A DNA stretch of 64,000 bases, from assembly GCA_937894115.1 (NCBI GenBank), contig CALBFP010000296.1, positions 5,275-69,274 of the forward strand, given 5' to 3'. Of the stretch, positions 17,113-62,552 are shown in pieces; positions within the stretch are counted from its first letter, which is position 1; each line of letters begins with the position of its first letter. This stretch comes from an uncultured euryarchaeote (GTDB lineage Archaea; Thermoplasmatota; Poseidoniia; Poseidoniales; Poseidoniaceae). The translations under genes were made by a program, and so were the position numbers. The notes under the pieces were generated by a model. It was given only the letters and a program-made list of their open reading frames with translations. It ran no database searches and was not told the origin of the DNA.

Positions 17113-17116
17113 GCAT

Positions 17117-22286: not shown

Positions 22287-22331
22287 ACGTTGTGCTCTTC
22301 AAGTTAGGTTATGATTTCTTTGTTAACGAAA

Positions 22332-23588
22332 TCACGTTTCAATATCCCGCCAGGCAAATGTCCATCCCCAATTTTGACCTTTTTGACCGGGTGTGTTCAT
22401 CCTTGCTTCAGATCCGAGTCCAAGATAATCTTGCAATGGGATAATTGCGATGGGAGCCTTTGACTGTTGGGCAAGTCGAATCATTGTCTCATGAACGTTT
22501 TCTTCTTCAACCGATAACGATTTCAAACGAGATTGCTCTGTAGCAGTTGCGGATTGAAACCATCCAATAGCAGTGTCGTTGTCGTGTGTTCCCGTGTAGG
22601 CGACTTGGTCTTCGAGAATGTTCGCAGGATGGTGAGGATTGGTGCCTGAATCGCCTGTGAATCCGAATTGAAGAACCGCCATGCCCTTGAGTTGTTGACG
22701 CTGTCTGAATGCAACAACCTCTTTTGGGATTATGCCCAAATCCTCTGCTATAATTTGGTCCGGTGATTCGACGAGTTTCATAATCTGTTCAAACAGTTCG
22801 TCTTTGGGCCCATCTTGCCAGTGGCCCGTTCTGGCATCGATACCAGGATAGGGGATGGCCCAGTTTGAGTGAAATCCCCTGAAGTGGTCAATTCGAACGA
22901 CATCGTACAATCGGAACATCCGTTTCATGCGTTCTTTCCACCATGTCCATTGTTCCTTGCGATGCGCATCCCAATTGTAAAGCACCGTTTCCCATACTTG
23001 TCCGGTTTCGCTAAAGTAATCTGGAGGCACACCCGCAACGAACGTAGGATAACCGTCATCGTCGAGTTGAAACAGCTCTCGATGCGCCCAAACGTCAGCG
23101 GAATCATGAGCGATGAAAATAGGAACGTCACCGATCACACGCACTCCATTGGCATTGGCATACAGACGTAAGTCTTGCCACTCTGTATTGAAGGAGCGCT
23201 GTGTTTGAAGGTACGGTTCAAGTTTTTCCTGATAGGGTGCAAGAGCTTCTTCGTTGCGGTTTTTCAATAAATCGGGCCATTCATACCATGGTTTTCCGTT
23301 TTGATCATCCTTAATTGCGCAATACAATGCCCAGTCCTCAAGCCAATACGCTTCATCGTCCATAGCATGAGATTGGGTGGACTTCGTCAAATCGTCCCAA
23401 CCTGCGAATGCAGAAGGCGATGCATACGGTGATCGGTATTCGTCAGGAGGTGTCAGAGGTAACAATTGCCAGTACGAGAATCCCTTTTCCTTGAGCCAGT
23501 CGACGAAACGGTAGCCTTGAGACAATTTTTGCTCCGGCAGAGAAGTGATATGACAGAGAACACCGGTTTCTTGTTTTGACTCCATCAT
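22332..23588 (-). CDS. malQ: 4-alpha-glucanotransferase (GH77, amylomaltase)
   Basis: Diagnostic motifs are GVLCHITSLP, VRIDHFRGF, IAEDLGIIP and YTGTHDNDT. Confidence 0.9.
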   Translation of the reverse strand: MMESKQETGVLCHITSLPEQKLSQGYRFVDWLKEKGFSYWQLLPLTPPDEYRSPYASPSAFAGWDDLTKSTQSHAMDDEAYWLEDWALYCAIKDDQNGKPWYEWPDLLKNRNEEALAPYQEKLEPYLQTQRSFNTEWQDLRLYANANGVRVIGDVPIFIAHDSADVWAHRELFQLDDDGYPTFVAGVPPDYFSETGQVWETVLYNWDAHRKEQWTWWKERMKRMFRLYDVVRIDHFRGFHSNWAIPYPGIDARTGHWQDGPKDELFEQIMKLVESPDQIIAEDLGIIPKEVVAFRQRQQLKGMAVLQFGFTGDSGTNPHHPANILEDQVAYTGTHDNDTAIGWFQSATATEQSRLKSLSVEEENVHETMIRLAQQSKAPIAIIPLQDYLGLGSEARMNTPGQKGQNWGWTFAWRDIET

Positions 23589-23631
23589 CTTACTGCAAAG
23601 CCTTTCAAATTATCATTTCTACGGTTAAGCC
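23589..23631. promoter_or_regulatory. 43-bp divergent promoter region between malQ and the GH57 gene
   Basis: The only A/T-rich element, ctttcaaattatcattt, lies about 20-24 nt from both start codons. This implies a shared or bidirectional TATA-like box and near-leaderless transcripts. Confidence 0.3.
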
Positions 23632-26600: not shown

Positions 26601-28101
26601 AATGGCCCCACCGGCCCCAGCTGAAGTTGTCCTTCCGGACCTTGAACAGTGGGTGACATTGCTGGAACTTGATGATGCAATTGGTGATGAAACAGGAGAT
26701 GGGGATTACATCTATCCGCTTTCAAGCGACTTTGCAACTCCGAACAACGGTGGTTTATGGGACGCCAAGAAACTGACGATTCGTCAAAGTGCTTGGAATG
26801 CGCAGTTTATTCTCGAGATGGATGAGATGACCGACATATGGGGCCTTAGCAACGGTTTCAGTCATCAAATCGTTCAAATTTATGTGGATCAAGGGGAGAC
26901 ATCTTACGGTTCAACTGAAATGCTCAGTGGAGCCAACGCTCTCATTGATGACGCTTGGGCTTGGGAAGTTGCCATCAGTGGTACAGGTGAACCCGGAGCG
27001 GTACTTGCTGTCCAATCTCAGACCGGGAGTACATCCTCTCGCGGTGTCGATGTTTCTGGTGATGTCGATGCAAAGACGATTACCTTCACCGTTAGCAAGG
27101 ACGTTATCGGAGACGACATACCGAATTACCGATACATTGTCGTCATCGGAAGTCAAGACGGTTTCGGTACAGGTAAATGGCGAGATGTTGACGCATCACC
27201 TTCAACGTGGACGCTGGGTGGAGGTTCCGATCCTGCGTCGGATGATGGAATCGACTATGACCCCAACGTTATCGACATGATTCTCAACGGTTCAGGTCAA
27301 GAGGCGATGCTTTCTTCCTACGATGTTGAAGGACACGTTTATGCGAAACTCACCGGTTTTGAAATGCCGGAAATACCGCAACAAATCTTTGGCGCGTCGA
27401 TTGAAACAGTGACCTCGTCTAGTGCTGTAATCACATGGTCGACGACGGTTTCGGATTCCACTTCGATTCAATATGCTCCAGCAGACGTGGAACCTGAGGA
27501 TTCAACAACAAATCGATTTGAGACTCCTACAGGAACCGATCATGCCATCACATTAACAGGTCTGGATGTCGGTACTTCGTATTGGGTTTTTATCCGAGCA
27601 AACAACTCAGAGGATGTTCTCTTGTACTTCAATACCAGCATTGTTGTAGACGAAACCCCGCCAGAACTTCTGAATTTGGATGCAGAGGTGCTTGAAGATG
27701 GACGTATCAAAGTTGAATGGTACACTTCAGAAAGCGCTACAGAAGAAGTTCTAGTAGGAGGAACTGTCATCCATACCGATGAATTTGCAACCAACAAGAA
27801 CCATCAATATGTTACAGAAACCTACGCAAATGGAGACTACACAATTGTAGTCCGAAGTGCCGATGCATCAGGGAACATGAACGAGAGCAGCATCTCCATC
27901 ACCGTCGACATCGAAGGTTCAAATGTCGAATCAAATCCGTCGATGTCGAACGATACAAACAACACGATTGAAGGTGATGAGAACGCATCAATGCTCTCAA
28001 ACGGAATTCTTCAGATTGGTATCCTCCTCACGGTCTTGGTTCTCCTTGTTGCCTTCGTTCGTGTTCGAAACGGACACGATGGTGATGACAAATGGAACTA
28101 A
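23632..28101 (+). CDS. membrane-anchored GH57 alpha-glucan hydrolase (amylopullulanase/alpha-amylase-like) with carbohydrate-binding-like, glucodextranase-C-like and FN3-like modules
   Basis: It has a signal peptide. The five GH57 regions are VFHQHQPYY, GQVELTTTPYYHPIMPLL, WPSEEAVS, ALDGENW and AEGSDWFWWYG. A GDGDYIYP...WDAKKLTI block resembles the glucodextranase C domain. The C-terminus is a TM helix. Confidence 0.85.
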   Translation: MRRSAVVLAMLFVTSTLGVFSVGLTPSTITVDGDLSDWDSDSQMSSSNIDLHLTWDATNLYIGWDGTDWKATSEGADLFVYFNTTNAGSVLSKDWGFSHTLPFAADYGFVLEDDSYFRLIAYDGTSWVESSAVVDLYAGWSGNKVTEFSIPWSELGSPTSLDVVMYAQWQNEGNVWVSFPEQNPASNNGAETFTHAWHIDNVDNVTNPSQLPVVQPAAAGKVDDALNLAIVFHQHQPYYKNKLTGMYEMPWVRVHAMTEYVDSPGILADTNTKVTYNLVPSFIEQLVDYHEQETLDVHTDIAKRSWATGGYPNATDLELHTMQFQSFWNSGWIYNVSAEDSKLGWLYPSSDRYKELYDATLHNLKPATIMNDDLLPPQDFLDLQVLWYLYQFSPDYVLGTYNSSHRDQGLIDLFMQNGNYDLADLNYVLDAQHAHMGNVLPMYSELAAQGQVELTTTPYYHPIMPLLMMDGWTMEDGIRVNKEAWPEDVQNHLITGMDLFEQELGFRPTGMWPSEEAVSPAMVQPVTDVGIEWMVTDEEILKQSTDQNGASIDVEDATNLATPWKVTGVDGGEVAVIFRDRVISDRIAFQYGTMTPEAAVSDFIAYLDNIRQQLLDAGEDPSEHLLTVALDGENWMFMSEFQHQDNARPFMAEWYGRLATHPTIVTTTPSEFLETEPTLPEIQTIGTGSWIDGTLRTWAGEEEESLAWQRLVEARQKLVKFEEDYPNDPGLEAAWESLYIAEGSDWFWWYGLDQDSGYDENWDVLFKVHLSNIYRAVNLDLPPYLQDLWTNPAVPLPAASAIIEPMIDGVALPGEWDGAARYEAPVEGDPFDIEEFYIGYDASNVFVRVDATTVDQLANMSLDGASPDLALYFMQPNAVNFNEAETNFRTYYGNQILGFPSKYMVAFDFDTLRDDGRAKWSLFSAKGKNGDQEQWVRTGSSSLGGCAAQDVYEFIIPWSEIGLAPRYSTRIKVVASLANSLAYGDGVDKEMAPPAPAEVVLPDLEQWVTLLELDDAIGDETGDGDYIYPLSSDFATPNNGGLWDAKKLTIRQSAWNAQFILEMDEMTDIWGLSNGFSHQIVQIYVDQGETSYGSTEMLSGANALIDDAWAWEVAISGTGEPGAVLAVQSQTGSTSSRGVDVSGDVDAKTITFTVSKDVIGDDIPNYRYIVVIGSQDGFGTGKWRDVDASPSTWTLGGGSDPASDDGIDYDPNVIDMILNGSGQEAMLSSYDVEGHVYAKLTGFEMPEIPQQIFGASIETVTSSSAVITWSTTVSDSTSIQYAPADVEPEDSTTNRFETPTGTDHAITLTGLDVGTSYWVFIRANNSEDVLLYFNTSIVVDETPPELLNLDAEVLEDGRIKVEWYTSESATEEVLVGGTVIHTDEFATNKNHQYVTETYANGDYTIVVRSADASGNMNESSISITVDIEGSNVESNPSMSNDTNNTIEGDENASMLSNGILQIGILLTVLVLLVAFVRVRNGHDGDDKWN

Positions 28102-33605: not shown

Positions 33606-33726
33606 AGGCAGAGAACTCTTGTCGAGATGTCGATTGTTTCGCACCTTTCTGCTTCCGTTCAGGTATCGAATTCGATGTCGTTGTTTTATCGAAACAATTT
33701 ATACATGTCTGTCATGTTTGAGAAAT

Positions 33727-34986
33727 ATGAGAAAGATAGCGATAATACTTGTTCTTATGATGATGCTCGCAGGATGTACTGAACTCACGGGAGACTCCAC
33801 GGAGTCCACTGAATACACAAATCAAGATTTAGAAGGCTTGTACGTCAGTGCGGGCTTCGGTTTGCAGGTCGACATGAATCCTGACGATACGTATGTTGTA
33901 TACATGTTGCAATTAGAAGATTGCTACGATACAGAAGAAGAAGCAAACTCCGCAATGGAGGAATTGACAACAGACGGAGACTTGGTAGACATGTATGGCC
34001 CCGATGCAACACTTCTGATGTCGGACAACTGTATCTTCGTTCAGGAACCTTTAGAGGAGTCAGGAATAACAATTACAGATTCCTTGAATACGATTTCTGG
34101 TACGCCATACATTGAAATGATCATATCAGAGGAAACCTATGGAAATTTCGTATGCGACAATGGAGAAGCAATTCCTGGTGATTGGGTCAATGACGGCGAG
34201 GCAGATTGCCCAGATGGAGAAGACGAAGCTGAGGGTGCAGAAGATTCACTTGAGACGGTAACCACAGAAGTTACAACCTATCTTGCAGCAGATGGCTATG
34301 GGACAATTGTCTATCCAGAGGGAATGTTGGGTGAAGATTCCCCCGCGTTCTGTATGCACATGGCGCCTCCAGCTGCCATGCAGGCATTTTATCAAACGGT
34401 CGAAGGACTTGACAACCTTACCGATGAAGAACTCGAGGACATTGATCCCGAAGTTCTCTCGACATACCCGAGCATAATCGTTGAATCCTTTGCGGTTTTT
34501 GACCAAAACTTTGCAGACAGTTCGATACCGAGCCTATATGGTACAGCATGTGAGAGTTCGAGCTCAATTCTCGTATCATGGTTCGGTGTTTGGGCAACCT
34601 CGTTGGCAGAAGGCACGACTGATGACAATTTCATGATGTACGATTTCTCAGTTGCAGATGCTGCAGGGACTCCCACTTCAGATAGTGGAGAAGCGCTTGT
34701 TTACGTTTCAATGGATGCTGGAGACGATTTGAATTGGGCCGATATACGTATTCAGATGTCGGTTGATGGAAGTGCTTTCCAGCAATGTACACAACCAGGA
34801 ATGGACGCTGATACTGGCTGCCATGTTACTGACGATGGAGATAACAAGTGGGCATTCGCTGAGGAAGTCACAATAAGTGAAGGTTCGGATGATCTATGCA
34901 GTGGGCCTTGTAATGTTGAACTCCGAATCTTGAATGTTCTTGAGAACACAATTATCTACGATTCAAATGTCAATTATGTTGAATAA
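33727..34986 (+). CDS. secreted acidic lipoprotein, function unknown
   Basis: ATG at 33727 gives MRKIAIILVLMMMLAGC (lipobox). The protein is very D/E/T-rich. It contains CDNGEAIPGDWVNDGEADCPDGEDE. The ORF-track start at 33619 adds an implausible Cys/Arg-rich leader. Confidence 0.65.
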   Translation: MRKIAIILVLMMMLAGCTELTGDSTESTEYTNQDLEGLYVSAGFGLQVDMNPDDTYVVYMLQLEDCYDTEEEANSAMEELTTDGDLVDMYGPDATLLMSDNCIFVQEPLEESGITITDSLNTISGTPYIEMIISEETYGNFVCDNGEAIPGDWVNDGEADCPDGEDEAEGAEDSLETVTTEVTTYLAADGYGTIVYPEGMLGEDSPAFCMHMAPPAAMQAFYQTVEGLDNLTDEELEDIDPEVLSTYPSIIVESFAVFDQNFADSSIPSLYGTACESSSSILVSWFGVWATSLAEGTTDDNFMMYDFSVADAAGTPTSDSGEALVYVSMDAGDDLNWADIRIQMSVDGSAFQQCTQPGMDADTGCHVTDDGDNKWAFAEEVTISEGSDDLCSGPCNVELRILNVLENTIIYDSNVNYVE

Positions 34987-49915: not shown

Positions 49916-51187
49916 TCAAGTCATCGAACAATCTGAAATTGTTACCCTTTCAAGAATCCTTGAACCTACATTGACTTGATAGTCTGAAATTGTAATCGAA
50001 TTCATCAAACGTTTCAACGAAGCATCATTGAGGCCACGAGGTGCGTCCAAGGTGAAAATGGGGTCACCTTCTTCGACTTTCATGCCAATGTGGTTGTGTA
50101 TTTCAATTCCAATTCCATGGTCGATATCTTCACTCTGGGTCGAGCGACCGGCTCCTATCTCACACAAAACTTGACCAAACACAAAAGCATCCAAGTCAGC
50201 GATATAGCCCGCTTTTCCTGCTTTTATTGTGTAGGCTTCAGGCGCTCGTTGCAACACGCTCCAAGGATTGTCGATCAGCTGTTGCACAACCTCCACATCA
50301 ACGCCTTGACGCACAAGCATCGAGTTGAACTCTTGCAGAGCAGAACCGTCGTTGATGACTTCAGAGATGTCGTACCCTAATGATTCGGCCTGTGCAAAGA
50401 CCAACTCCATCGTGTCGTTTGGACCCATACCCTTGAGACATGCAATGGTTTCAACAATTTCATGACTGTTTCCAATCATGTTCCCAATCGGGTGGTCCAT
50501 CTGCGTAAGCAATGCCTCAACTTTCATTCCAAGGGCAGTACCAACACGGACCATAGAGTGCGCAAGATTTCGAGCGTCCTCTGAGTGTTGCATGAAAGCC
50601 GCTCGACCGTACTTGACATCGAGGACCAGTGCTTGGATTCCTTCAGCCGCTTTTTTGGAGAGAATTGATGCTGTAATCAATCCTATGCATGGCACGGTTG
50701 CAGTCACGTCACGTATTGCATAGAGTATGGAATCTGTCGGTGCAATTTCATCGGTTTGTCGAGAAATGAAACATGGATTGTGTTCCATTTCTTGGATGCT
50801 TAATCCTGTGTTGAAACCAGGGATTGCCTCAAGTTTATCGATGGTTCCTCCCGTATGCGCCAGTCCTCTTCCCGCAAGCATAGGAACCACAGCACCACAC
50901 GCTCTTAGTGCTGGTGCAAGAACAAGGCTCATTTTGTCACCAACACCACCAGTTGAATGCTTGTCGACAGCGCCGGTCTGAGCAGGGAGTCGGTCTCCTT
51001 GTTCCAGCATTGCCTTGGTGAGGTGTATGGTTTCATCAGCATCCAATCCGTTGATCTGACATGCCATCAAAAACGCACCAATCTGCTCGTTTGGTATGAC
51101 ATGAAGATGTTTGATGAACCATTCAATTTCGGACGGTTCGAGTGCCTTACCATCCCTTTTTTTTGCCAATATCTTGGGGATGTGCAT
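49916..51187 (-). CDS. deoA: thymidine / pyrimidine-nucleoside phosphorylase
   Basis: The N-terminus is ILAKKRDGKALEPSEIEWFI and the phosphate-binding motif is DKHSTGGVGDK. At 423 aa it lacks the N-terminal extension of archaeal AMP phosphorylases. Confidence 0.85.
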   Translation of the reverse strand: MHIPKILAKKRDGKALEPSEIEWFIKHLHVIPNEQIGAFLMACQINGLDADETIHLTKAMLEQGDRLPAQTGAVDKHSTGGVGDKMSLVLAPALRACGAVVPMLAGRGLAHTGGTIDKLEAIPGFNTGLSIQEMEHNPCFISRQTDEIAPTDSILYAIRDVTATVPCIGLITASILSKKAAEGIQALVLDVKYGRAAFMQHSEDARNLAHSMVRVGTALGMKVEALLTQMDHPIGNMIGNSHEIVETIACLKGMGPNDTMELVFAQAESLGYDISEVINDGSALQEFNSMLVRQGVDVEVVQQLIDNPWSVLQRAPEAYTIKAGKAGYIADLDAFVFGQVLCEIGAGRSTQSEDIDHGIGIEIHNHIGMKVEEGDPIFTLDAPRGLNDASLKRLMNSITISDYQVNVGSRILERVTISDCSMT

Positions 51188-51192
51188 TCAAA

Positions 51193-52182
51193 TCAACTCT
51201 CATCGGATGAAGCCAATCCGATTTCAACGAGACGTTGGTGCAGGAATTCCCCTGCGGTGATGGAAGGGTAATCAGCAACGCCACTTGTACGTGCTACGTA
51301 TTCAGGACGTGGTGTCAAATCGATTTCGTTGCGAGGATGCACGAACATTGGCATCGAAAATCTTCGCTGTGTTGGATCACCTGGATTGACCACGCGATGT
51401 TTTGTTGAACGGAACAATCCATTTGTTAGATTTTGAATCATGTCACCAGAATCGACAATGATTTGTTCGTGGTTCCCCTCAACATCAATCCATGTTCCAT
51501 CGTTGTCCATGACCTGCAGTCCAGCAGCGGTGGCTGTCATGAGGAGCGTGATGAAATTGATGTCCTCATGTGCCGCTGAACGGACCGCACCTTCAGGTGT
51601 TGAAGCATCAAGAGGAGGATAGTGAATGATGCGCATAATCGTGTTGCCTTTGTCGGCCATTGATGGCAACCAATTCGCATCTTTTCCAAGGTACGTACTG
51701 CAAGCAGCGAGCAATTGGTTGGAAATGATTTCCATTTGATTGTACAACGAATCTACGTTCTCTTCAAACTTCGGAATGTGTTCGTTTGGCCATATGTTCA
51801 TCGGGTATTTGTTGTCCGTTTCGCTTCCTTGTTGTCCCCGTCCAGTTTGCCAAAATTCCTTGAGATCGGGTGCAGGGTTGTCTTTTGCATGCTCCACTCC
51901 GAACGACGTGTAACCTCGCTGATGTGAAATCTCTGGCTTTGAATACAAATTTTTCACGGAATCTTCAAGCATAAAGAAGGACTCAGCTTCATGATATGTG
52001 CCCTCAATCAAGGACAAGTCAATGCCGTGATTTGTGAGCGCAAAAAATCCAATGTCTGCAAGTGAATCTCCAACGGTTTTGATGAACTTCTGTACCCGTT
52101 GTTCATCCTCGGACAGATAGTCATCAAGGTCGGCTATTGGTAACGGCCGTGTCAACGAATCACCTGTCGCGAAGCTTTGCAA
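51193..52182 (-). CDS. 2-oxoglutarate/Fe(II)-dependent oxygenase (isopenicillin-N-synthase family)
   Basis: The facial triad and 2OG-binding residues are visible: IHYPP...AAHEDINFITLL (HxD), STKHRV (distal His) and RRFSMPMF (RxS). Confidence 0.8.
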   Translation of the reverse strand: MQSFATGDSLTRPLPIADLDDYLSEDEQRVQKFIKTVGDSLADIGFFALTNHGIDLSLIEGTYHEAESFFMLEDSVKNLYSKPEISHQRGYTSFGVEHAKDNPAPDLKEFWQTGRGQQGSETDNKYPMNIWPNEHIPKFEENVDSLYNQMEIISNQLLAACSTYLGKDANWLPSMADKGNTIMRIIHYPPLDASTPEGAVRSAAHEDINFITLLMTATAAGLQVMDNDGTWIDVEGNHEQIIVDSGDMIQNLTNGLFRSTKHRVVNPGDPTQRRFSMPMFVHPRNEIDLTPRPEYVARTSGVADYPSITAGEFLHQRLVEIGLASSDES

Positions 52183-52897
52183 TTAAACGAAGCATTTCGA
52201 AATACAGCCAAATAACGGTGACCATAACTCCGAAGGCGCCCCACCATTCCTGCTGCTTTGGAGCTCCCATTCGGACACCTGCGTCAATCATACCAAAATT
52301 CGAGATAAGCATCATCGCTGCAATGGTGATGATGAACAGACTTATTCCAATTCCAATCGGTCCAGAGGAGTGAAGGAACGGTACGGACCACGGTGTGAGG
52401 AACACCAAAAAGAGGTTGATGATGTAGACAAGGAAGATGGATCCTGCAAGTGTGAAAACAATCTTGTTGAAGGTCGGCGTTGGTCGAAGGATTCCAACCG
52501 AGTAAATGGTGAGCATCGTTGCAACGACAGCAAAAGTTGCGAGTCCAGCTTGTATGGCAATACCGGGATACATCAGCTCAAAAACAAGCGTTAAGGGTCC
52601 TATGAACAGCCCTTCCAGCGTTGCATAGACCATCACAAAACCGGCTGGTTCGACTGGACGAGAAAACCATAGGTAGACACCCATTCCCATGGTACCAAAC
52701 ATCCCAAGCAGCATCATTGGAAACAACAGACCGGGCATGATGAATCCAAGAGCTACGGAGCCAACTGCACTGACGGTTGCAAGTCCGAAAAGGATGCCTA
52801 TTTTTTGCAAGGTTCCTTCAAAGCTCATTCGGTCGTATCCTTGGATTGTATTCCAAAACTTCGGTTGAAAAACCGGGTTCGTTGAACTGTATGCCAT
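52160..52897 (-). CDS. Bax-inhibitor-1-like (BaxI_1/YccA-related) membrane protein
   Basis: ATG at 52897 gives MAYSSTNPVF..., followed by seven hydrophobic helices. The longer track ORF (to 53239) would overlap the upstream gene by about 300 nt. Confidence 0.7.
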   Translation of the reverse strand: MAYSSTNPVFQPKFWNTIQGYDRMSFEGTLQKIGILFGLATVSAVGSVALGFIMPGLLFPMMLLGMFGTMGMGVYLWFSRPVEPAGFVMVYATLEGLFIGPLTLVFELMYPGIAIQAGLATFAVVATMLTIYSVGILRPTPTFNKIVFTLAGSIFLVYIINLFLVFLTPWSVPFLHSSGPIGIGISLFIITIAAMMLISNFGMIDAGVRMGAPKQQEWWGAFGVMVTVIWLYFEMLRLIAKLRDR

Positions 52898-52937: not shown

Positions 52938-55900
52938 TCAGCCTTGCTCAGCGACCTGTTGTTGATAGTATTCTTCCAACTGGTCAAGCGTCCATCCGAG
53001 GTCAAGGTACTGTTGCACCATTTGCTCATCCCAGCCGGGGAACCTGTCAAGTTCTGAAGCGATTGATGTTGATTCGTCCGTTTCGTTTCGTCCATCCAAA
53101 ACAGGCTGCTCCCACTGCTCGTCAACATGAACAACATCATCGATGTGTTGATCTGTGACCCAATCCTTGGCCGCCTCGCTCTCTTTACGTGATTGAACAA
53201 TTCCGTAAACGGCACCAACCAATAGAAGCAAGCCACCAATCATCAGCAAAAGCATGAACGTTTCGCCAAATCCTTCTTCGGCTTCTCCACTTGCTTTTCC
53301 TGCTTTTTCGTTTCGTTGCTCTGAGGAACATCCCGAAACGTCGGTTGGGGTGTTTGGCGCAGTGTCAGGACAATCATCGTCGGAGTTGAGAACGCCGTCT
53401 TCATCGCTATCGATGCTCGAGTTTTCGGATTGGTTGTCGGATGGGTCAATTGGTTCAATTCCCCCGAGGTCGCATCCGAGTGCGGTCGCCTCATCAATAC
53501 CGTCACCATCAGCATCCGCAAGGTTGATCGCATCTGAGGGCGAAACGTCTTCAATTGCAGAATCGAGGGCGGTCGATTGTGCCCATGTTACCTCAACCGC
53601 ATCGAGGATGCAGTCACCGTCGGTGTCCGAATTCAGAGGATTACCACCGAGCATGTATTCGTCCATGTTCGATAAACCATCGTTATCGTTGTCTACATCA
53701 CTTTCCAAAACGCCATTGCGCATTGATACGGTTCGGTTAAGGCCAAAATTGACTTCGAATATATCGGGCATACCGTCGTTGTCCGTATCCGTCACGTTGT
53801 CCAAGCGATTCCAGTCGGCATACCACGATTCAATAAAGGGTGCTGCCACCTCAGAAGATGTGATGATAAGGCCCATCTCACGATTGCGGACCATCGCAGA
53901 ATCGCCCCAATTGATGCTTGATATGAGAACGGATTCACCATCAACAATTGCACCTTTGTTGTGCAGTTTCATAACGTCATCATCCTCGCTCATGATGATC
54001 GCAGATACGTCCCATCCGTTGCTGATGTTCCAGTCGTTGTTGATTCGATCGACAACATCTTGAATGTCTTCATCAAGGTAGGCTCCGTTGATTATCAGAC
54101 GGATTGAAACCCCATCAGAAGCTGCTTGTTGCAGTGCAGAGATCAAAGGATTCTCGCCCCATCCCCATTTCCAATCAAGATCCAAGTATTGCAAGGACAG
54201 TAAAATCTCATCATCCGCTGATTGAATCATTTCTGTAAGGCCTTCGACACAATCATCAGGACAGGTCAACAAACGTCCGCTAAACGATCCACTCAGCGCC
54301 TCTGCAGTGTTTTGATCAATTTCCGTAGCTTCTGGAATGACATAGGAATTTGTTGGAGGTGTTGAAGACACGGGTTGGACGAACATCGAACTTTCATCAA
54401 ACGCCATGTTTGCTCGAACGTTGGCCGCAAGTTGGACGCTGTTGACGATGATTCCCCAATCTCGGTTGCCACGATCACCATCGTATGGCAGAGAGGAAGG
54501 CTTCCAATTTCCTGAACCAATCCATACTGAGGAAGCGTCACGGACTGCGACCTTTGAGTGAAGATAGAGGTACGGATCGTCAGCTGTGCCACCGAACCAG
54601 TGGACACCAATACCTGCCTGGTTGAGTGAATGTGCGTAAGCCTGTTGTGCTTGCCTATCGTTTTGGTTCCACCAATCTTCGGGTTCGTTGAGAACAACCG
54701 ATACGTCAACACCTCTGTTTTGAGCATCGATGAGTGCTTGTGAAAGTTCGCTCGATTGCAGGATGTAGATGTGTACGTGAAGTGAATTTTGGGCATCATC
54801 AATCCAATTGATGAGATCCATCAATCCATGTTCTGGAGCGATGAGCGGTGTGACCGCTGTCGCATCGTTGAATGTAGAATCGGCACAGAAATCACTGGCA
54901 CCCAAGCGGCCCCATCGTTGGTGCCAGTCTGTAGATTGGTTGGTGTCCGTCATCAGACCACAACCATCCCCACGGTACAGAATGAGGTTGTCGATACCAC
55001 TCACTGGCTCTGAAAGCGAAACACCCTCCCATCCTTCGCTGGCAACCGGCCCATTCTTGTAGACAATCGTGTCAGCAACTCCACCGGTTGGATGGATTAA
55101 TTGCAATGCCATACCGCTGTCAAGAAGGTAAATCGGGCTCTCCATGGCCGCATTCATGTCAAGCAGGATGCCGTCTTCGAACAATTCCAATGCATCAACA
55201 TCGTTCGATAATTTAACCGATGAGGAGGCATTGATTTGAAGATTGGTTATTTCGGATTCAAACGAAGATCCGTCTGAGGCAATCCGTCGAACCGACCATC
55301 CGTTTAGAAGAGCAGATTCCGTTCCAATGTTGGTCAATTCAAAGAACTCCATTTCTGTTGAAATGGAAGAGACTCCATCCCACATTATTGAACTGAATTT
55401 GATGTCGTCAATCGAGGCCATCATGGCGGCGTCGGGTTCAGGCAAACCAGGGGTAGGCCACATGAACTCAACCCATCCGTCATCGCTCGCATTGTAGCCG
55501 TACGTAGCGCAATTCGTACTCAAGAATCCTGTTGGAGGAGCGATGGTAGCGACGACTTCTCCATCTGGATTGAGAAGGTCCATACTGCTTACTTCATCCA
55601 AACCAACACCAAAGATGTCGTGTTGCAATTCGACCACAACACGGTCTTGTGGAGCGAGCGTGGCATCAACAATCGAAGATGGCCACAACACGCTGACGTC
55701 GATAAACTGTCGGCCCATGAGTGGATTTGAATTGTAATCTGCACGAAGCATCCACCGACTCAAATTGACGTTTGTCTCCCCATTGTTGTACAGTTCAATC
55801 CAATCGGCAGCAGGCTGGAATGCAGGGTCGTTGCAAGATGTGGCCATTTCCGTGACGAGGATGGTCTCGCTTCCCGAATATGCCGGCCAAACCGGGTTTT

Positions 55901-57833
55901 CTTGACCTGGTGTTGCCCATGCACTGTTGAGCCAGTCGCTCATGCCCCATGTCGTGCTTGAGGAGGGGGCGTTCGTACCCGAGGGGCCAGCACCTGCGTG
56001 CGTTTCCGTGTTGTTGATCAGAGAAACACCTTCGAGCGTGTGCGTCCATTGAGCCGAATGAACTGCAACTCCATTTCCGTCATAGAGGAATATTTGGTCC
56101 GGCGTTGTGTGTTTGAGGTAGAATTGTGAGGTCCCATTGAGCGCAACAAGGACGGTTTCACCTGCTTGCAAAACCGTGTCGGATTTGGCAGGCATGTTGT
56201 ATTGATGAAGAATCAGGGTACGCCCCGCAGCAGAGAAGCGCCATCCAGCAACATCGACCTCCTCAGTACCCATGTTTTGAATTTCAATCCATTCGCCGTT
56301 TGGGTACGGCAACGAATCGGTGCCGATTGCGTCGGCCAAGACCTCGGTTATTTTGACGTCACCAGTGGTTGGCGTTGGGGTTGGGTTTGGTTGGCCCGGC
56401 GATGGTGCAATCGAAGGAGTCCATGGATCGTGGTAATTTTGAGCCTGAATTAATGAAACGTTTGTTCCGTAATTGGTGGTGTAATGCGCCATATCCACGA
56501 TGGATTCTGCAGCATTGCGAAGAATCAGGTGGTTGTAATTGTCCATGAGGCGCGTGTCTCCAGTAAACTCGACAAGTCTCCGTTCTCCAGCATCGATGGT
56601 TGTGCTGCCTTGTGAACTGTTGAACACAATTGATCCAGGGTCCAGATAAGTGACATTACCCATGCCGTTAACGATCGACCAACCGTTAAGGTCGATTGCC
56701 ACGGCTCCAGAATTGTAAAGTTCAATCCATTCACCCTCCGGTGCTGAGCTTCCATCGGAGGCGCTCACAGGAAAAATTTCACCGAATTGAACATCCGAAC
56801 CTGCAGTAATATCGTTCAATTTTGGAGCGTTTGTTGCGTTTCGGGTTGGGTATGTAGAATACTGCCAAAGACCTTCACCGCTTGGGGCCTCAAGTGAAAA
56901 ACCGGGTTGATTTCGGGTCCACGCCACTTCATCTCCAATGCTTCCGTTGGACAGATACAGATGCAGCGTTTCCTGACCGTTGTTCAGGATACTGCTGCTG
57001 GTTGTTGAGTTCACAGAGACGACTCTCGTTTCTTGAGGATAGATCAACAGCGTTGAAGCATCGGTTGTTGCACCGATGAGATGATTTTCATCCATCGCAA
57101 TTGTGTTGCCTGCAACGTCCTGCAACCAATATCCGCTGAGGTCAATCGTTGACGTACCGTTGTTGTACAGTTCCACCCATTCCCCACCCGGCCAGGACTC
57201 GTTATCGTAACTTGGCCATGGGTCTGCCATCACCTCATTGATGATGACATCGCTTTCGGTGTACGATGGTCCCGTCGTGCCCCCTCCACCTCCACCGCTG
57301 TTCAACGAACCGGGAGTAGGGCTCGAGGTGGGAATCCAATCGTTGTACGCACTCGCTGGATCTTCTTCCAAACTCACACCGCTGGAACTTGAATTCCATG
57401 TGGCCTCATCAACCCAGCTGTTGGATGCGTCGTAGAGTGTCATGAAATCGTTGGCATTGGCAACGTAGAAGTTGGTGGTCCCGTTTCTCGCAACGATCAT
57501 GTAATCGCCGGGAGCCAGCGTGTAAGTCGATGCATCGCTGGCATTGTAGCCGACGATTGAAGATGCATCAAGATAAAGCGTCTTGGAGGCTTTGTTTGAG
57601 AAGTACCAGTTGCGAACATCCACGGATGATGTTCCCGTATTGTACAATTCCAACCATTCTCCGTTTGGCCAAGTAGCGTTGTCGTAACCGTTTGGATTTG
57701 GCATTACTTCATTGATGCAAACCGAACCACTGCAAGGCTGACTTCGAGCCCCTGCTGCCTCTGTCGGACCCACAAGGTGCGTCACAGGAACCAAAAGCAT
57801 GAGCGTGAGGAGGAATATTGATTCAATTCGCAT
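52938..57833 (-). CDS. 1631-aa surface protein: signal peptide, six lamin-tail domains (LTD), double-HKD phospholipase-D-superfamily domain, TSP3-like repeats, TM anchor, acidic cytoplasmic tail
   Basis: There are six repeats of the INEV....P....GEW[IV]ELYN.G pattern (aa 39, 196, 349, 493, 658, 811). HKD motifs are HSKVAVRDASSVWIGSGN (aa 1092) and HNKGAIVDGESVLISSIN (aa 1291). DxDxDG repeats span aa 1346-1490. The TM helix is at aa 1525-1546. Confidence 0.8.
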   Translation of the reverse strand: MRIESIFLLTLMLLVPVTHLVGPTEAAGARSQPCSGSVCINEVMPNPNGYDNATWPNGEWLELYNTGTSSVDVRNWYFSNKASKTLYLDASSIVGYNASDASTYTLAPGDYMIVARNGTTNFYVANANDFMTLYDASNSWVDEATWNSSSSGVSLEEDPASAYNDWIPTSSPTPGSLNSGGGGGGTTGPSYTESDVIINEVMADPWPSYDNESWPGGEWVELYNNGTSTIDLSGYWLQDVAGNTIAMDENHLIGATTDASTLLIYPQETRVVSVNSTTSSSILNNGQETLHLYLSNGSIGDEVAWTRNQPGFSLEAPSGEGLWQYSTYPTRNATNAPKLNDITAGSDVQFGEIFPVSASDGSSAPEGEWIELYNSGAVAIDLNGWSIVNGMGNVTYLDPGSIVFNSSQGSTTIDAGERRLVEFTGDTRLMDNYNHLILRNAAESIVDMAHYTTNYGTNVSLIQAQNYHDPWTPSIAPSPGQPNPTPTPTTGDVKITEVLADAIGTDSLPYPNGEWIEIQNMGTEEVDVAGWRFSAAGRTLILHQYNMPAKSDTVLQAGETVLVALNGTSQFYLKHTTPDQIFLYDGNGVAVHSAQWTHTLEGVSLINNTETHAGAGPSGTNAPSSSTTWGMSDWLNSAWATPGQENPVWPAYSGSETILVTEMATSCNDPAFQPAADWIELYNNGETNVNLSRWMLRADYNSNPLMGRQFIDVSVLWPSSIVDATLAPQDRVVVELQHDIFGVGLDEVSSMDLLNPDGEVVATIAPPTGFLSTNCATYGYNASDDGWVEFMWPTPGLPEPDAAMMASIDDIKFSSIMWDGVSSISTEMEFFELTNIGTESALLNGWSVRRIASDGSSFESEITNLQINASSSVKLSNDVDALELFEDGILLDMNAAMESPIYLLDSGMALQLIHPTGGVADTIVYKNGPVASEGWEGVSLSEPVSGIDNLILYRGDGCGLMTDTNQSTDWHQRWGRLGASDFCADSTFNDATAVTPLIAPEHGLMDLINWIDDAQNSLHVHIYILQSSELSQALIDAQNRGVDVSVVLNEPEDWWNQNDRQAQQAYAHSLNQAGIGVHWFGGTADDPYLYLHSKVAVRDASSVWIGSGNWKPSSLPYDGDRGNRDWGIIVNSVQLAANVRANMAFDESSMFVQPVSSTPPTNSYVIPEATEIDQNTAEALSGSFSGRLLTCPDDCVEGLTEMIQSADDEILLSLQYLDLDWKWGWGENPLISALQQAASDGVSIRLIINGAYLDEDIQDVVDRINNDWNISNGWDVSAIIMSEDDDVMKLHNKGAIVDGESVLISSINWGDSAMVRNREMGLIITSSEVAAPFIESWYADWNRLDNVTDTDNDGMPDIFEVNFGLNRTVSMRNGVLESDVDNDNDGLSNMDEYMLGGNPLNSDTDGDCILDAVEVTWAQSTALDSAIEDVSPSDAINLADADGDGIDEATALGCDLGGIEPIDPSDNQSENSSIDSDEDGVLNSDDDCPDTAPNTPTDVSGCSSEQRNEKAGKASGEAEEGFGETFMLLLMIGGLLLLVGAVYGIVQSRKESEAAKDWVTDQHIDDVVHVDEQWEQPVLDGRNETDESTSIASELDRFPGWDEQMVQQYLDLGWTLDQLEEYYQQQVAEQG

Positions 57834-59410: not shown

Positions 59411-61153
59411 CTACGATTGTTCGATGTATTCTTGACGATCACTGATGCCATCGCCATCGCTGTCCAGACTGTTGGAACTCGTTCCGAATGCGGATTCGAG
59501 TGCATCACTCAAATCATCATCGTCGTTGTCATCAACATCCGCATTGTTAAGGCTGTAAATCATGCTCAGAGTTTCCGCATCCTCGACTTGGAGAAGCCGC
59601 CCCTCCCAGGTCATAGCGGTTCCTAAATGAAGTTCATCAAGTCCGATGCAGTTATTGACGGCACTTAGGAGAATCTTTCTGTCGCTCCCTGGCTCACTCA
59701 GGAACCACGTTCCATTTTCTTCAACAGCGAGACCATTGATTCGAACAATTTTGTTTTTGTCGTACCCCCAGTCGATTGCTCCATCGCCCCAGAGCAGATT
59801 CATTGGATTCGCTTTCTCACCTTCAGTGAGTTCGTGGACCAACAATTCTGCTCGCATGTTTTCGTCATCCCACGCAACCGTAACATTGGCAACAATCGCT
59901 TGCCCTGCTTCGAGCCATGTTGAGCGTGGTCCAGGAATCGTGACTGCAATGCTTGTCCACCCCGGTGTGTACCCCGACGAATCGACAAGGTAAGCGGATT
60001 CATCCTCGACACTCGGTTCCAAGGCGTATTTCATGTATGCAGATACAATGTAGTGTTGATCGGGAGAATCAAGAACTGCGGTTGGATTTGCGTTGAGCAT
60101 GAGCAACAAATCGTCGATTGAGGAGGTTGCGGTCAAGGAAGGATTGGATTCATCACTCTTGTCCAGACACCAAGAGGAAATCGCAGTATTCCACACCAAC
60201 CGGCCACGCATTTGGATGGATTTTCCGTTGAGTGAGTCGACCGCACTCACGTCGTCATCGCTGGGGAGAACACACAGCGGTGAGCCAGATGAGCCAGAGA
60301 GTTCCCAACTGTCGTTCTCGACGGTTAAAACACCCGCGACATCCACGGTTCTGCCCGATGAGTACATCCACGTCGATTGTGAAGACCAATCGAGAAGCGG
60401 CATTTCAATGGGGTGATTTCGATCGATTTTGATGTCGGGGCCTTGAATACCGAGATTCCATCGAAGTTCGCGTTGTTGGTACGAAAGAACGCCTTGTACA
60501 GTAACCTTTGATCCCGCCTCGATCCATTCACCAGTTGCAGAGTGAATGGTCATACCGATTTGGTGCTCTGAGTTTCCATAGTTCGGATGATCGCCAAGTT
60601 TTGCATTGCCAAAAGCGATATCAGGTGCAATGGACTTGGAGATGAAACCCGTGAGTTCAATGACCTCGCCGTCATAGGATTGTGGATTCAAAGCAACGTC
60701 AGAAATTGACAATTGTGGCGCTTCGGGGACATCGCTGGACTTCCAATTCATCGCTCCAGCACCGAGAGCTTGTATCCACATGCGACCTTCGTAATTTATG
60801 ACATCTCCAATAATCGTAACGTTGGTCCCAATTGGAGGTAAATCGCCGGGTCGATACCAGCGTAGTTCGACAACACCCGTTCCGTCGTCAATAATTGCAT
60901 CGAGGCGATCGTCTCCAGAGTTGTACGGGTCTTCGACCCATGAAATGAGCATGCCTTCGACCTTGACAACCTCATTGATGTATTCTGTAAGGTCGTCGAC
61001 ATCGACTACGGAAGGCTCTCGAACCATTGCGTACCAATTGAGGGTAGCGACAAGAAACAGAGAAATGGCGAACATAACCCACAAGCGTGGTCCGTTCGTT
61101 TCTGGATCATCGGTTGATAAACGCGCAAGGAAGCCCTTCAAGCCATCCGCCAT
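59411..61153 (-). CDS. type-II membrane-anchored surface protein with about five OB-fold-like modules and a C-terminal TSP3-like acidic repeat
   Basis: ATG at 61153 (MADGLKGF...) is followed by one TM helix. A pattern recurs: V.V.G.l...(variable)...D..G...v......G..V.v.G.v. One example is VVKVEGMLISW...IIDDGTGVVELRW...IGTNVTIIGDVINYEGRMWIQA. The end reads DSDGDGISDRQEY. The OB assignment is by eye only. Confidence 0.5.
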   Translation of the reverse strand: MADGLKGFLARLSTDDPETNGPRLWVMFAISLFLVATLNWYAMVREPSVVDVDDLTEYINEVVKVEGMLISWVEDPYNSGDDRLDAIIDDGTGVVELRWYRPGDLPPIGTNVTIIGDVINYEGRMWIQALGAGAMNWKSSDVPEAPQLSISDVALNPQSYDGEVIELTGFISKSIAPDIAFGNAKLGDHPNYGNSEHQIGMTIHSATGEWIEAGSKVTVQGVLSYQQRELRWNLGIQGPDIKIDRNHPIEMPLLDWSSQSTWMYSSGRTVDVAGVLTVENDSWELSGSSGSPLCVLPSDDDVSAVDSLNGKSIQMRGRLVWNTAISSWCLDKSDESNPSLTATSSIDDLLLMLNANPTAVLDSPDQHYIVSAYMKYALEPSVEDESAYLVDSSGYTPGWTSIAVTIPGPRSTWLEAGQAIVANVTVAWDDENMRAELLVHELTEGEKANPMNLLWGDGAIDWGYDKNKIVRINGLAVEENGTWFLSEPGSDRKILLSAVNNCIGLDELHLGTAMTWEGRLLQVEDAETLSMIYSLNNADVDDNDDDDLSDALESAFGTSSNSLDSDGDGISDRQEYIEQS

Positions 61154-61244
61154 GTTCCTGCTCTTGGCTTGCAATGCATATCTCTTACCATAGGACAGTT
61201 TGGCGAGAGATGCTTTGAAATGGAAGGCAAGGACAGGATTTACC

Positions 61245-62552
61245 ATGCGAGACCGTGTTATTCGTGATGAAATCCATCGCGATGTTTTGGTACCAGCCCA
61301 TCACGCTCGAATCATCGACACCAATGAATTCCAACGACTGAGAAACATTCAGCAACTCTCGACCTGTGAATTTGTTTTCCCATCGGCGACACACACACGT
61401 TTTGCTCATTCTCTAGGAGCATACTATCTTGCAGGGGAACTCACATCCTCCATCCAAGAAGTTCAACCCGGTCTGCTTTCCGATTCCGATGCGGAACTTG
61501 TCCAAATCGGAGCGCTGCTCCATGACATTGGGCACCCACCTTATTCCCATTTGCTGGAAACACCCGAAGTTTTTGCGACCTTCCACTCTCACGAGCATTG
61601 GGGTCGCATTCTTCTTGAAAGCAACGAATCAGAAATTGGGAGAGTGCTTTCGGATGTATTGGGCGACGAAGGAAAGCAACGACTTTTTGCGCTTTTGGAC
61701 GGCCGTAATGAGTGCAATGGAGTTCCGATTCCACCGTTTATGAAAGAGATTATTGGCAGTCAACTCGATGTCGACCGTATGGATTACATGATTCGTGATC
61801 AAGCAAATACGGGCGCTCAAATTGGAGGTTTCGACAGTGCAAGAGTCATTCGTGCGCTTCGAGTGAACGATGAAGGTCGACTCTACGTCAAATCATGGGG
61901 ATTGCCGGCCATCGAAGCGTACCTCGTAACACGTTATCACATGTACAATCAAGTTTACTTTCACAAGGTCAACATGCTTACTCAATCCTATCTTGTGCGC
62001 ATGCTGAGGCGGGCTCGAGAACTTGCGGAGGAAGGAAAGCTCGAATTGGATGGAGAAATCAAGCAGATGCTTCTCAACAAAACACTGACGCCAGAGCAAT
62101 ACGCATCACTACACGATTCCCACATCAAAGTTGCCATGGGCCGTTTTGCACTACAGGACGACGAGATCTTGTCAGGTTACGCATCGCGTCTTCTAGCGCG
62201 TAGAGATTACCACAAGTCGCTGCGCATCCCATCGCTGACGACGGAAATGTTTGCAGCGGTCGAAGAAGATGTTGCATTGTTGTTGAAAGAAGAAGGATTC
62301 GATCCGTTCCACGATCTTATCACAGCAACCATTGGAAAACGCGGGTACATGCCGTACGATCAGGGCATTATTCTTGAAGACGGCAGAGATGCAGCAGAAC
62401 ATTCCCCGCTCATACGCTCGCTCACGCAATCCGAGGAGCATGTGCTTGTTTTTGTTCCAGAGCAAGTAAGGGATGCTTGCGAATCCATGGTGCGTGCAAA
62501 AACAAAACCGACTCAATCCTCATTGGCAATGTTTGATTCGGCAAACTCATGA
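61245..62552 (+). CDS. HD-domain dNTP triphosphohydrolase-like protein (SAMHD1/EF1143 family)
   Basis: Diagnostic motifs are FQRLRNIQQLS, THTRFAHSLGAYYLA, LLHDIGHPPYSH and DVDRMDYMIRD. The start is taken at ATG 61245. Confidence 0.82.
   Translation: MRDRVIRDEIHRDVLVPAHHARIIDTNEFQRLRNIQQLSTCEFVFPSATHTRFAHSLGAYYLAGELTSSIQEVQPGLLSDSDAELVQIGALLHDIGHPPYSHLLETPEVFATFHSHEHWGRILLESNESEIGRVLSDVLGDEGKQRLFALLDGRNECNGVPIPPFMKEIIGSQLDVDRMDYMIRDQANTGAQIGGFDSARVIRALRVNDEGRLYVKSWGLPAIEAYLVTRYHMYNQVYFHKVNMLTQSYLVRMLRRARELAEEGKLELDGEIKQMLLNKTLTPEQYASLHDSHIKVAMGRFALQDDEILSGYASRLLARRDYHKSLRIPSLTTEMFAAVEEDVALLLKEEGFDPFHDLITATIGKRGYMPYDQGIILEDGRDAAEHSPLIRSLTQSEEHVLVFVPEQVRDACESMVRAKTKPTQSSLAMFDSANS

Follow-up and report, generated by a model that had tools for sequence, protein, structure and literature searches.

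To our knowledge, archaea lack ComEC, and how DNA passes across the archaeal membrane is an open question; the only genetic lead on archaeal DNA transport that we know of is a TctA-like protein together with its OB-fold neighbor in two methanogens. A stretch of 64,000 nucleotides (nt) from an uncultured euryarchaeote of the Poseidoniaceae (contig CALBFP010000296.1, positions 5,275 to 69,274; this whole stretch is referred to as the window) bears on this question. It encodes a giant surface protein in which six lamin tail domains (LTDs) precede a phospholipase D (PLD) domain with two HKD motifs, and the gene lies downstream of genes for a TctA-like membrane protein and for an array of predicted OB folds. 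What does this LTD-PLD protein cut, and does it work together with the proteins encoded next to it?

We consider the protein most likely to be a type-I membrane-anchored, disulfide-stabilized cell-surface phosphodiesterase belonging to the Nuc-like branch of the PLD/HKD superfamily. That it also forms the nuclease arm of an archaeal module for the capture, uptake and salvage of DNA stands, in our estimation, at roughly even chances or slightly less. What the analysis shows is the architecture of the protein, its conservation and fold, its nearest relatives and the order of the genes; from these we infer that it is a nuclease, that it cooperates with the OB and TctA proteins and what becomes of the products, which together make up this full, coupled model. 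The protein resembles two kinds of enzyme already known, Nuc-type HKD nucleases and extracellular nucleases that bear LTDs; the new aspect is the apparent recruitment of an LTD-PLD protein into a module with OB folds and TctA. Among the planktonic archaea of the surface ocean, Marine Group II (MGII), to which the host belongs, is the most abundant group. In the sea, dissolved DNA is a major pool of organic phosphorus and nitrogen. If the model is true, this DNA is consumed or taken up by the archaea that dominate the surface ocean.

Domain architecture and topology of the LTD-PLD protein

The original prediction, made from the sequence of this stretch, described a signal peptide followed by six LTDs, a PLD domain, Asp-rich repeats, a transmembrane helix and an acidic cytoplasmic tail, and this order is borne out by Pfam, regular-expression and hydropathy analyses (Table 1). 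Both the LTD and the PLDc_2 family, whose recovery by Pfam had been proposed as a check, were found above their cut-offs: PF00932 with E=1e-73 and 245 bits in six stretches (cut-off 34.3), and PF13091 with E=3e-38 and 131 bits in two stretches (cut-off 27). A hidden Markov model (HMM) built from the LTD-PLD family resolved the six LTDs with per-domain E-values of 1e-42 to 3e-22, and the span that it gives for them (nt 55002-57728) agrees with the predicted one (54999-57728). The LTD cores, located by regular expression at amino acids (aa) 58, 217, 367, 513, 676 and 829, read GEWLELYN, GEWVELYN, GEWIELYN, GEWIEIQN, ADWIELYN and MEFFELTN, so that the GEW[IV]ELYN core ascribed to every LTD is found in LTD2 and LTD3, while the other four deviate from it. 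Each LTD carries a net charge of -12 to -17.

The stalk that follows the PLD domain contains five DxDxD[GC] motifs (aa 1349, 1381, 1403, 1440 and 1475). To this extent the predicted thrombospondin-type-3-like repeats are present; the eukaryote-type family TSP_3 (PF02412), however, was not recovered in the stalk (E=1.8), and TSP3_bac (PF18884) remained below threshold there (22.7 bits in three stretches, cut-off 25). PF18884 is present in some LTD-PLD orthologs. Going by their sequence, the stalk repeats are best described as DxDxDG Ca-type repeats.

An extracellular location of everything between signal and membrane helix is indicated by the N-terminal hydrophobic signal, by the cysteines and by the single C-terminal transmembrane helix followed by R/K. 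An alignment of 116 full-length orthologs shows no variation at any of the 12 cysteines, including Cys1408, 1454, 1488 and 1502 of the stalk, and they form six neighboring pairs, which is the pattern expected of extracellular disulfides. The tail behind the helix is acidic, as had been predicted (22 D/E versus 5 K/R), and comprises 83 rather than 85 residues. It has no Pfam family match, and among the open reading frames (ORFs) of the window and of 89 related loci an HMM of the tail matched only LTD-PLD proteins; we therefore rejected the idea that it is a sorting or anchoring module common to other surface proteins. Its conservation suggests an intracellular partner. An anchor of the sortase or archaeosortase type (LPXTG, PGF-CTERM) was likewise rejected, because the helix is followed by a conserved 83-aa tail and not by a short basic one; the Gram_pos_anchor match (13.6 bits, cut-off 20) covers the transmembrane helix only.

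Conservation and distribution

More than 300 homologs of the protein were found, and the full-length orthologs are 42 to 97% identical to it. A scan of GTDB species genomes yielded 356 stretches encoding relatives, and the MGII locus statistics given below were drawn from the best 80 of them. The titles of nearly all of these 80 give Poseidoniales, Poseidoniaceae or related archaeal names, and CM001443.1, the first MG-II assembly, is among them. Together with the 97% identity between the PLD region of the window and that of contig PBSP01000097, which comes from an MGII metagenome-assembled genome (MAG), this agrees with the archaeal host assumed beforehand. The gene with six LTDs and a PLD domain is thus a conserved, selected core gene of the MGII archaea (Poseidoniales). 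The MGII gene also occurs, at 82-84% identity, in two MAGs filed as Salipiger bermudensis (CAXQWT010000029.1) and as an uncultured Rhodobiaceae bacterium (CALDQY010000105.1); this bacterial filing is probably binning contamination.

The original prediction regarded the architecture as unusual, a view that the distribution of its relatives contradicts. When a profile of the PLD region was run against 1.84 billion cluster representatives, 650 matches below 1e-30 were obtained. Of the nearest 148 representatives (clustered at 50% identity), 115 carry one to six LTDs on the N-terminal side of a two-HKD module, as judged with the family-built LTD HMM, and a profile built from distant members, when used to scan metagenomes, added at least 555 stretches encoding relatives to the 356 from genomes. 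Proteins with LTDs and a PLD domain therefore make up a large, uncharacterized family, the named members of which come from archaeal MAGs. In some relatives, which are up to 2300 aa long, a complete PLD module is present twice, so that there are four HKD motifs, and LTDs are interleaved with the two modules (P0221, P0224, P0226, P0227, P0229, P0230 and P0232-P0234).

Catalytic residues and enzyme class of the PLD domain

Both HKD motifs are exactly as they had been described. The first, HSKVAVRDASSVWIGSGN (starting at aa 1092; nt 54507-54560), is a canonical HxK(x)4D(x)6GSxN, and the second, HNKGAIVDGESVLISSIN (starting at aa 1291; nt 53910-53963), is the SSxN variant. The H, K, D, S and N residues of both motifs are invariant in all 116 orthologs: H1092, K1094, D1099, S1107 and N1109 in the first, and H1291, K1293, D1298, S1305, S1306 and N1308 in the second. 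The AlphaFold2 model of the PLD region (aa 940-1350) is a confident bilobal two-HKD fold (pLDDT 84.3, pTM 0.86), which Foldseek aligns with two-HKD structures of the PDB at E-values around 1e-20. The claim that both halves are catalytically competent is upheld in that they look so by these residues and this model. Although the lobes are net acidic, conserved lysines and arginines cluster around the HKD motifs (K1094, K1111, K1293, R1316 and R1318).

That the protein is an extracellular HKD phosphodiesterase is highly likely. As to the kind of phosphodiesterase, searches of PDB sequences with phmmer and a family profile retrieved Nuc (1byr, 2e-13) first, followed by Zucchini (4ggj, 3.5e-11; both the mouse and the fly protein were retrieved), NucT (6ehi, 2e-10) and then SpPLD (7E0M), whereas no classical PLD, PSS, Tdp1 or BfiI was found at E<0.01. 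With about 155 aa, each lobe is as large as a Nuc monomer. It is the ranking of Nuc, Zucchini and NucT as nearest relatives, together with these Nuc-sized lobes, that points to the nuclease branch, and nucleic acid is probably the substrate.

A true phospholipase D, removing head groups from exogenous lipids such as those of algal debris or vesicles, would fit the lipid- and protein-degrading lifestyle that has been proposed for MGII. Membership of the PLD superfamily speaks for such an enzyme, as do the top Foldseek match, 7E0M, which is named a phospholipase D, and database names that include "cardiolipin synthase-like enzyme". The leading structural matches are SpPLD 7E0M, PLD3, PLD4 and poxvirus F13, and the E-values remain flat (1e-20 to 1e-17) across PLD3/4, F13, PLD1/2, PSS and Streptomyces PLD. 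The target-normalized TM-score, however, is 0.62-0.71 for the compact PLD3/4, F13 and 7E0M versus 0.44-0.52 for true phospholipases; this low coverage of real phospholipases, taken with the lobe size, is a hint in the model at a compact, nuclease-like type. Against a lipase also stand the lack of any classical PLD or PSS match by sequence or profile, a PF00614 score of 14.5 bits that lies below the cut-off, and the absence of lipid-metabolism genes from the six-gene string described below. Moreover, 7E0M itself has pocket loops that resemble those of nucleases and lacks an acyl-chain gate, according to its authors (PMC8004604). We regard a phospholipase D as improbable.

Source records call homologs "lamin tail domain-containing protein [Ca. 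Poseidoniaceae]" and, wrongly, "Cardiolipin synthase B", and the highest-ranking NCBIfam families are DrmC and NucT, every family remaining below its curated cut-off. The chance that the protein is the cardiolipin synthase ClsB or the defense nuclease DrmC of DISARM is negligible, even though both have HMM matches and one NCBI record supplies the former name. The ClsB score is 31.9 bits (cut-off 281), and the disulfide-type topology between signal peptide and transmembrane helix is extracellular. DrmC, the top match in NCBIfam and in PADLOC, scores 82.8 bits against a cut-off of 133; PADLOC finds DrmC-domain similarity per lobe only, and none of the DISARM partners (DrmA, DrmB, methyltransferase) is encoded nearby. 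NucT, with 56.3 bits, falls short of its equivalog cut-off of 297; the PLD domain is related to NucT without being its ortholog. A nuclease of the ExeM/Xds type was also rejected, as there is no EEP domain and the NCBIfam ExeM match (24 bits, cut-off 1300) concerns the LTD portion only. Going by these comparisons, the enzyme is classed as a Nuc-type HKD phosphodiesterase that is no named enzyme's ortholog, and neither a cardiolipin synthase nor a defense protein, which corrects the "cardiolipin synthase" annotations on hundreds of MAG proteins.

The gene string around the LTD-PLD gene

The LTD-PLD gene had been treated in isolation; it is in fact the third of six tightly packed, co-directional genes, in the order OB array, TctA-like, LTD-PLD, BaxI, 2-oxoglutarate (2OG) oxygenase and thymidine phosphorylase, separated by 8, 66, 40, -23 and 5 nt. 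Its substrate, held to be unreadable from the sequence, can at least partly be read from the nearest nuclease relatives and from this neighborhood. DNA in particular is pointed to by the OB-fold array and TctA upstream, by the thymidine phosphorylase downstream and by the deo genes at the Asgard-type loci described in the next section.

Neither Pfam nor BLAST against the Asgard OB proteins detected OB folds in the 611-aa OB-array protein, which has one transmembrane helix. The AlphaFold2 model (pLDDT 75.9) contains about six small beta-barrels in a string, and the 50 best Foldseek matches listed from the PDB are all OB-fold nucleic-acid binders or close fold relatives, such as the HIN (HIN-200) domains of p204 and IFI16 on double-stranded DNA, RADX, RPA70, CST, POT1, TEBP-alpha, LEF-3 and SSB.

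The string is well kept in MGII. Where the flank is long enough, TctA immediately precedes the PLD gene (64 of 65 loci); the OB-array gene precedes TctA in 58 of 64 genomes, and the 2OG oxygenase and thymidine phosphorylase genes follow downstream in all 58 of 58. A divergent relative with four LTDs, L175, retains the PLD gene and this last pair (L175:4613-6914) without BaxI, and BaxI is therefore probably no core part. The fungal thymine 7-hydroxylase belongs to the DIOX_N/2OG-FeII_Oxy class of oxygenases, and the constant pairing of oxygenase and thymidine phosphorylase gives rise to the idea of a candidate thymidine-to-uracil salvage route.

At one locus (L001:3013-9859), whose ortholog is 43% identical, a complete operon for phosphate uptake, made up of pstS, pstC, pstA, pstB and two PhoU genes, is inserted between TctA and LTD-PLD, with pstS 142 nt upstream of LTD-PLD on the same strand. 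Among the loci whose called genes were examined, this insertion was seen only here, and the pst linkage is anecdotal. On the other side of the string, divergently oriented, nt 61200-62552 (plus strand) encode an HD-domain protein with weak similarity to dGTP triphosphohydrolases (NCBIfam 39.9 bits, PADLOC dGTPase 43 bits), far below family level; wherever the called genes of MGII loci were examined, it is kept at this position.

The neighborhood also bears on the view that the protein is an adhesin or an envelope-remodeling enzyme, the LTDs of which bind polysaccharides or particles while the HKD domain cleaves phosphodiester-linked glycopolymers or polyphosphate. LTDs are Ig-like modules that occur together with carbohydrate-binding domains as well (Mans et al., as cited in PMC6085458). 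The remainder of the window is a glucan-utilization locus, and weak PP_kinase_C matches were obtained. These polyphosphate-kinase matches are marginal, however (E=0.005-0.01), and the glucan genes lie more than 25 kb away, with no glycan-active gene in the conserved string. We find this view more improbable still than that of a phospholipase.

Relatives in other lineages

At four Asgard-type loci (L090, L091, L095 and L096), the genes follow the order LTD-PLD, OB, OB, TctA, YdjM. Eukaryote-like small GTPases are encoded on the contigs of L090 and L091, and L091, with four LTDs, is from a named Promethearchaeota genome. The four OB proteins encoded at L090 and L091 all score above the gathering threshold of PF01336, each with two OB folds, and share the layout Zn-ribbon, transmembrane helix, two OB folds. 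The L091 module lies within a deo cluster comprising two PNP_UDP_1 genes and genes for an amidohydrolase, DeoC, a phosphopentomutase-type Metalloenzyme, cytidine deaminase and nucleoside 2-deoxyribosyltransferase, and at L095 a DeoC gene directly follows YdjM. The YdjM-family membrane hydrolase always stands behind TctA (L090:14838-15881, L091:15953-17017, L095:15290-16357, L096:8666-9841), a position comparable to that of BaxI in MGII. In a third lineage (L151 and L162, two LTDs), a TctA of the window type (E=1e-42 and 1e-40) lies immediately upstream of the PLD gene.

Adjacency to TctA or OB genes as a universal feature of LTD-PLD relatives was rejected. Four of 80 distant metagenome loci show it, which limits the link to DNA uptake to three lineages. 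No enrichment for nucleotide metabolism was seen among the pooled neighbors of distant loci, and a DNA role for the whole LTD-PLD superfamily is unsupported.

These observations bring up the view that the protein is a stand-alone surface nuclease or phosphodiesterase that scavenges phosphorus and nucleosides from extracellular DNA or RNA, uncoupled from the OB and TctA proteins, with other transporters importing the products. The evidence for a nuclease-type HKD domain fits it equally well, as do the thymidine phosphorylase downstream, the pst operon beside one ortholog and the purine-salvage role that NucT also has. Furthermore, most of the distant LTD-PLD genes stand alone, and the PLD gene can be separated from TctA by inserted DNA. 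What this view does not readily explain is that TctA, with or without OB, adjoins LTD-PLD in three lineages with differing gene orders, which is hard to obtain by chance for a family present about once per genome. We regard an uncoupled scavenger as rather unlikely, if clearly more probable than either a phospholipase or an adhesin.

Comparison with known systems

The pair formed by the OB-array and TctA-like genes resembles one known from methanogens. Natural transformation of Methanococcus maripaludis is lost upon clean deletion of MMJJ_13020 or of its neighbor MMJJ_13030, and the deletions are complemented in trans; the former gene encodes a single-transmembrane OB-fold protein and the latter a TctA-like one, and the TctA homolog is also essential for transformation in Methanoculleus thermophilus (PMC10133366). 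The authors proposed that the TctA-like protein is an archaeal DNA transporter that replaces ComEC, and their M. maripaludis screen also found a secreted thermonuclease (PMC10133366). The likeness to the window, drawn by description only, is that of an adjacent, co-directional pair of a single-transmembrane OB-fold protein and a TctA-family protein. The two differ in that no adjacent PLD or LTD nuclease has been reported for the Methanococcus pair and in that the window OB protein has about six OB folds. The present locus places this kind of pair in an operon-like string with a large surface nuclease. It thereby gives independent comparative support to the TctA hypothesis and offers a candidate nuclease partner with clear catalytic residues which, if the model is true, would be the dedicated nuclease of TctA.

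Among HKD enzymes, Nuc (pKM101, Salmonella) and NucT (Helicobacter pylori) use the same HxK(x)4D(x)6GSxN chemistry as the window protein, match it best by sequence and profile, and are likewise exported. Each is a homodimer whose chains, about 155 aa long, carry a single HKD motif, whereas the window protein fuses the two lobes in a single chain of 1631 aa and adds six LTDs, a Ca-type stalk, a membrane anchor and a conserved cytoplasmic tail. Identity to Nuc and NucT is low, and the alignments cover only parts of each lobe. NucT is a cation-independent, membrane-associated nuclease of the PLD family that has been implicated in transformation and in purine salvage (PMC5714352). Mammalian PLD3 and PLD4, luminal 5' exonucleases acting on single-stranded DNA, are likewise single-chain two-HKD proteins with a membrane anchor and a non-cytoplasmic catalytic domain (TM-score about 0.64), but they have type II topology, no LTDs and 15-17% identity, and the sequence and profile search did not retrieve them.

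LTDs typically accompany secreted nucleases and phosphoesterases, examples being ExeM and Xds (LTD, OB and EEP), Hvo_1477 (LTD and thermonuclease) and the haloarchaeal ComA (LTD and MBL) (PMC6085458, PMC5118699), and deletion of the LTD lowers the in vitro activity of an ExeM/Xds-type nuclease (PMC6085458). ExeM of Shewanella and Xds of Vibrio, which degrade extracellular DNA, come close to the window protein in having a signal peptide, an N-terminal LTD, OB-fold modules and a C-terminal membrane anchor (PMC6085458). They differ in their metal-dependent EEP catalytic domain, in their single LTD and in carrying the OB folds on the same polypeptide, whereas in the window these are encoded by a separate neighboring gene. 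Finally, bacterial competence follows a like logic of surface DNA binder (ComEA), anchored nuclease (EndA/NucA) and polytopic channel (ComEC, with OB, channel and metallo-beta-lactamase nuclease parts). There is no homology, however: in the window, the channel candidate is of the TTT/TctA type, the nuclease is of the HKD type, and they are separate proteins. Our literature search found no paper connecting MGII with LTD-PLD proteins, TctA or DNA uptake.

A model for DNA capture and salvage, and points against it

In the model that we propose, the Asp-rich stalk probably binds Ca2+ and would hold the catalytic two-lobe module near the membrane, from where the six Ig-like LTDs would project outward as an arm for reach and capture that helps to hold polymeric DNA. 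The HKD site would cut extracellular DNA independently of metal ions via a covalent phospho-histidine intermediate (His1092, His1291). The OB array may then bind the single-stranded or nicked product, and the TctA-like protein would import DNA or oligonucleotides. Imported deoxynucleosides would be salvaged or catabolized, with thymidine phosphorylase among the enzymes involved, and incoming strands could occasionally recombine. More generally, OB array, TctA-like protein and LTD-PLD protein may constitute an archaeal machine for the capture, processing and import of DNA that is a non-homologous counterpart of ComEA, EndA and ComEC, forms a core module in MGII and, in Asgard-type archaea, has another gene order and is wired to deoxynucleoside catabolism; we put forward this wider proposal tentatively, judging its chances to be somewhat below even.

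Several points weigh against the coupled model. Synteny in MGII spans tens of kb, GcvP and GuaA being conserved too, so that the MGII adjacency counts amount to about one evolutionary event. The interval between TctA and PLD can take up inserted DNA, namely the pst operon, CutA1 and 1.5 kb in CM001443, and identity between the TctA of the window and that of the Asgard type is only 22%. Neither a TctA nor an OB gene was found in the available flanks, many of them short, of 76 of the 80 distant LTD-PLD metagenome loci, and the pooled neighbors of distant LTD-PLD genes are enriched for intramembrane proteases of the SPP/presenilin (24) and rhomboid (21) types. The fold search cannot separate nucleases from lipases, and HKD chemistry serves many substrates. 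It should also be noted that all domains of the protein are strongly acidic (pI about 4.05), which is unfavorable for simple electrostatic DNA binding; such binding would need local basic patches or bridging by divalent cations. The predicted OB array is equally acidic (net charge -55), and the acidity thus looks like a general trait of these proteins.

The intramembrane proteases deserve mention in their own right. In the largest distant stand-alone clade (two LTDs, about 1260 aa), an SPP/presenilin-type peptidase and a rhomboid adjoin LTD-PLD (L112:11269-13179, L125, L130, L136, L150 and about 20 more loci), and a relative with a doubled PLD module also has a rhomboid next door (L176, 3670-4674). 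This suggests that the anchored LTD-PLD enzyme is shed by intramembrane proteolysis; the transmembrane helix of the window protein contains an invariant GA pair.

Feature coordinates and other features of the window

The features of the LTD-PLD protein and of its gene string are listed in Table 1.

Table 1. Features of the LTD-PLD protein and the genes around it. Coordinates are nt of the 64,000-nt window; all features listed are on the minus strand.
Feature	Coordinates	Strand	Evidence and remarks
LTDx6-PLD surface protein, whole coding sequence	52938-57833	-	1631 aa plus stop; ORF list, Pfam, >300 homologs
Signal-peptide-like hydrophobic N-terminal segment, aa 1-27	57753-57833	-	Kyte-Doolittle peak aa 3-24; inferred from hydropathy alone
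Six-LTD array, aa 36-944	55002-57728	-	Pfam LTD, family-built LTD HMM
LTD1, aa 36-172	57318-57728	-	Family-built LTD HMM
LTD2, aa 194-330	56844-57254	-	Family-built LTD HMM
LTD3, aa 346-476	56406-56798	-	Family-built LTD HMM
LTD4, aa 491-611	55899-56363	-	Family-built LTD HMM
LTD5, aa 656-794	55452-55868	-	Family-built LTD HMM
LTD6, aa 809-944	55002-55409	-	Family-built LTD HMM
Conserved Cys-containing linker RGDGC...DW..RW...C, aa 945-995	54849-55001	-	Invariant Cys958, Cys983 and R/G/D/W positions; low pLDDT
PLD N-lobe, aa 996-1150	54384-54848	-	PLDc_2, HKD motif 1, conservation, model
PLD C-lobe, aa 1188-1345	53799-54272	-	PLDc_2 second stretch, HKD motif 2, conservation, model
Asp-rich stalk, aa 1346-1520, net charge -40	53274-53798	-	Five DxDxD[GC] repeats (Ca-binding-type), two conserved Cys pairs
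Single C-terminal transmembrane helix, core about aa 1526-1547	53190-53273	-	Hydropathy; invariant GA, then R/K (positive-inside)
Acidic cytoplasmic tail, 83 aa	52941-53189	-	Conserved motif W..PVL...PGW...Y...GW...QL...Y..Q
Transmembrane-anchored extracellular tandem OB-fold protein, 580 aa from conserved Met32 (ORF to 61246, 611 aa)	59411-61153	-	8 nt upstream of TctA; structure prediction
TctA-like polytopic membrane protein, 500 aa	57900-59402	-	66 nt upstream of LTD-PLD; Pfam TctA E=9e-45
BaxI_1 (Bax-inhibitor-like) membrane protein	52160-52897	-	40 nt downstream of LTD-PLD; Pfam E=2e-57; start inferred
2OG-Fe(II) oxygenase (DIOX_N + 2OG-FeII_Oxy)	51193-52182	-	Pfam
Thymidine phosphorylase, 423 aa, last in string	49916-51187	-	NCBIfam NF004490, 412.6 bits (cut-off 269)

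Elsewhere in the window, an alpha-glucan utilization cluster occupies nt 13247-28101. Its genes encode a fusion of a sugar-binding protein with an ABC permease, an alpha-amylase that carries a CBM48-type module, and a GH57 enzyme of 1489 aa whose C-terminal module is an SLH-like glucodextranase one; a glycogen phosphorylase-like gene is also present. In addition, nt 33619-34986 (plus strand) encode a protein of 455 aa that contains an LDL-receptor class A module (PF00057, 30.9 bits), a domain that is uncommon in archaea.

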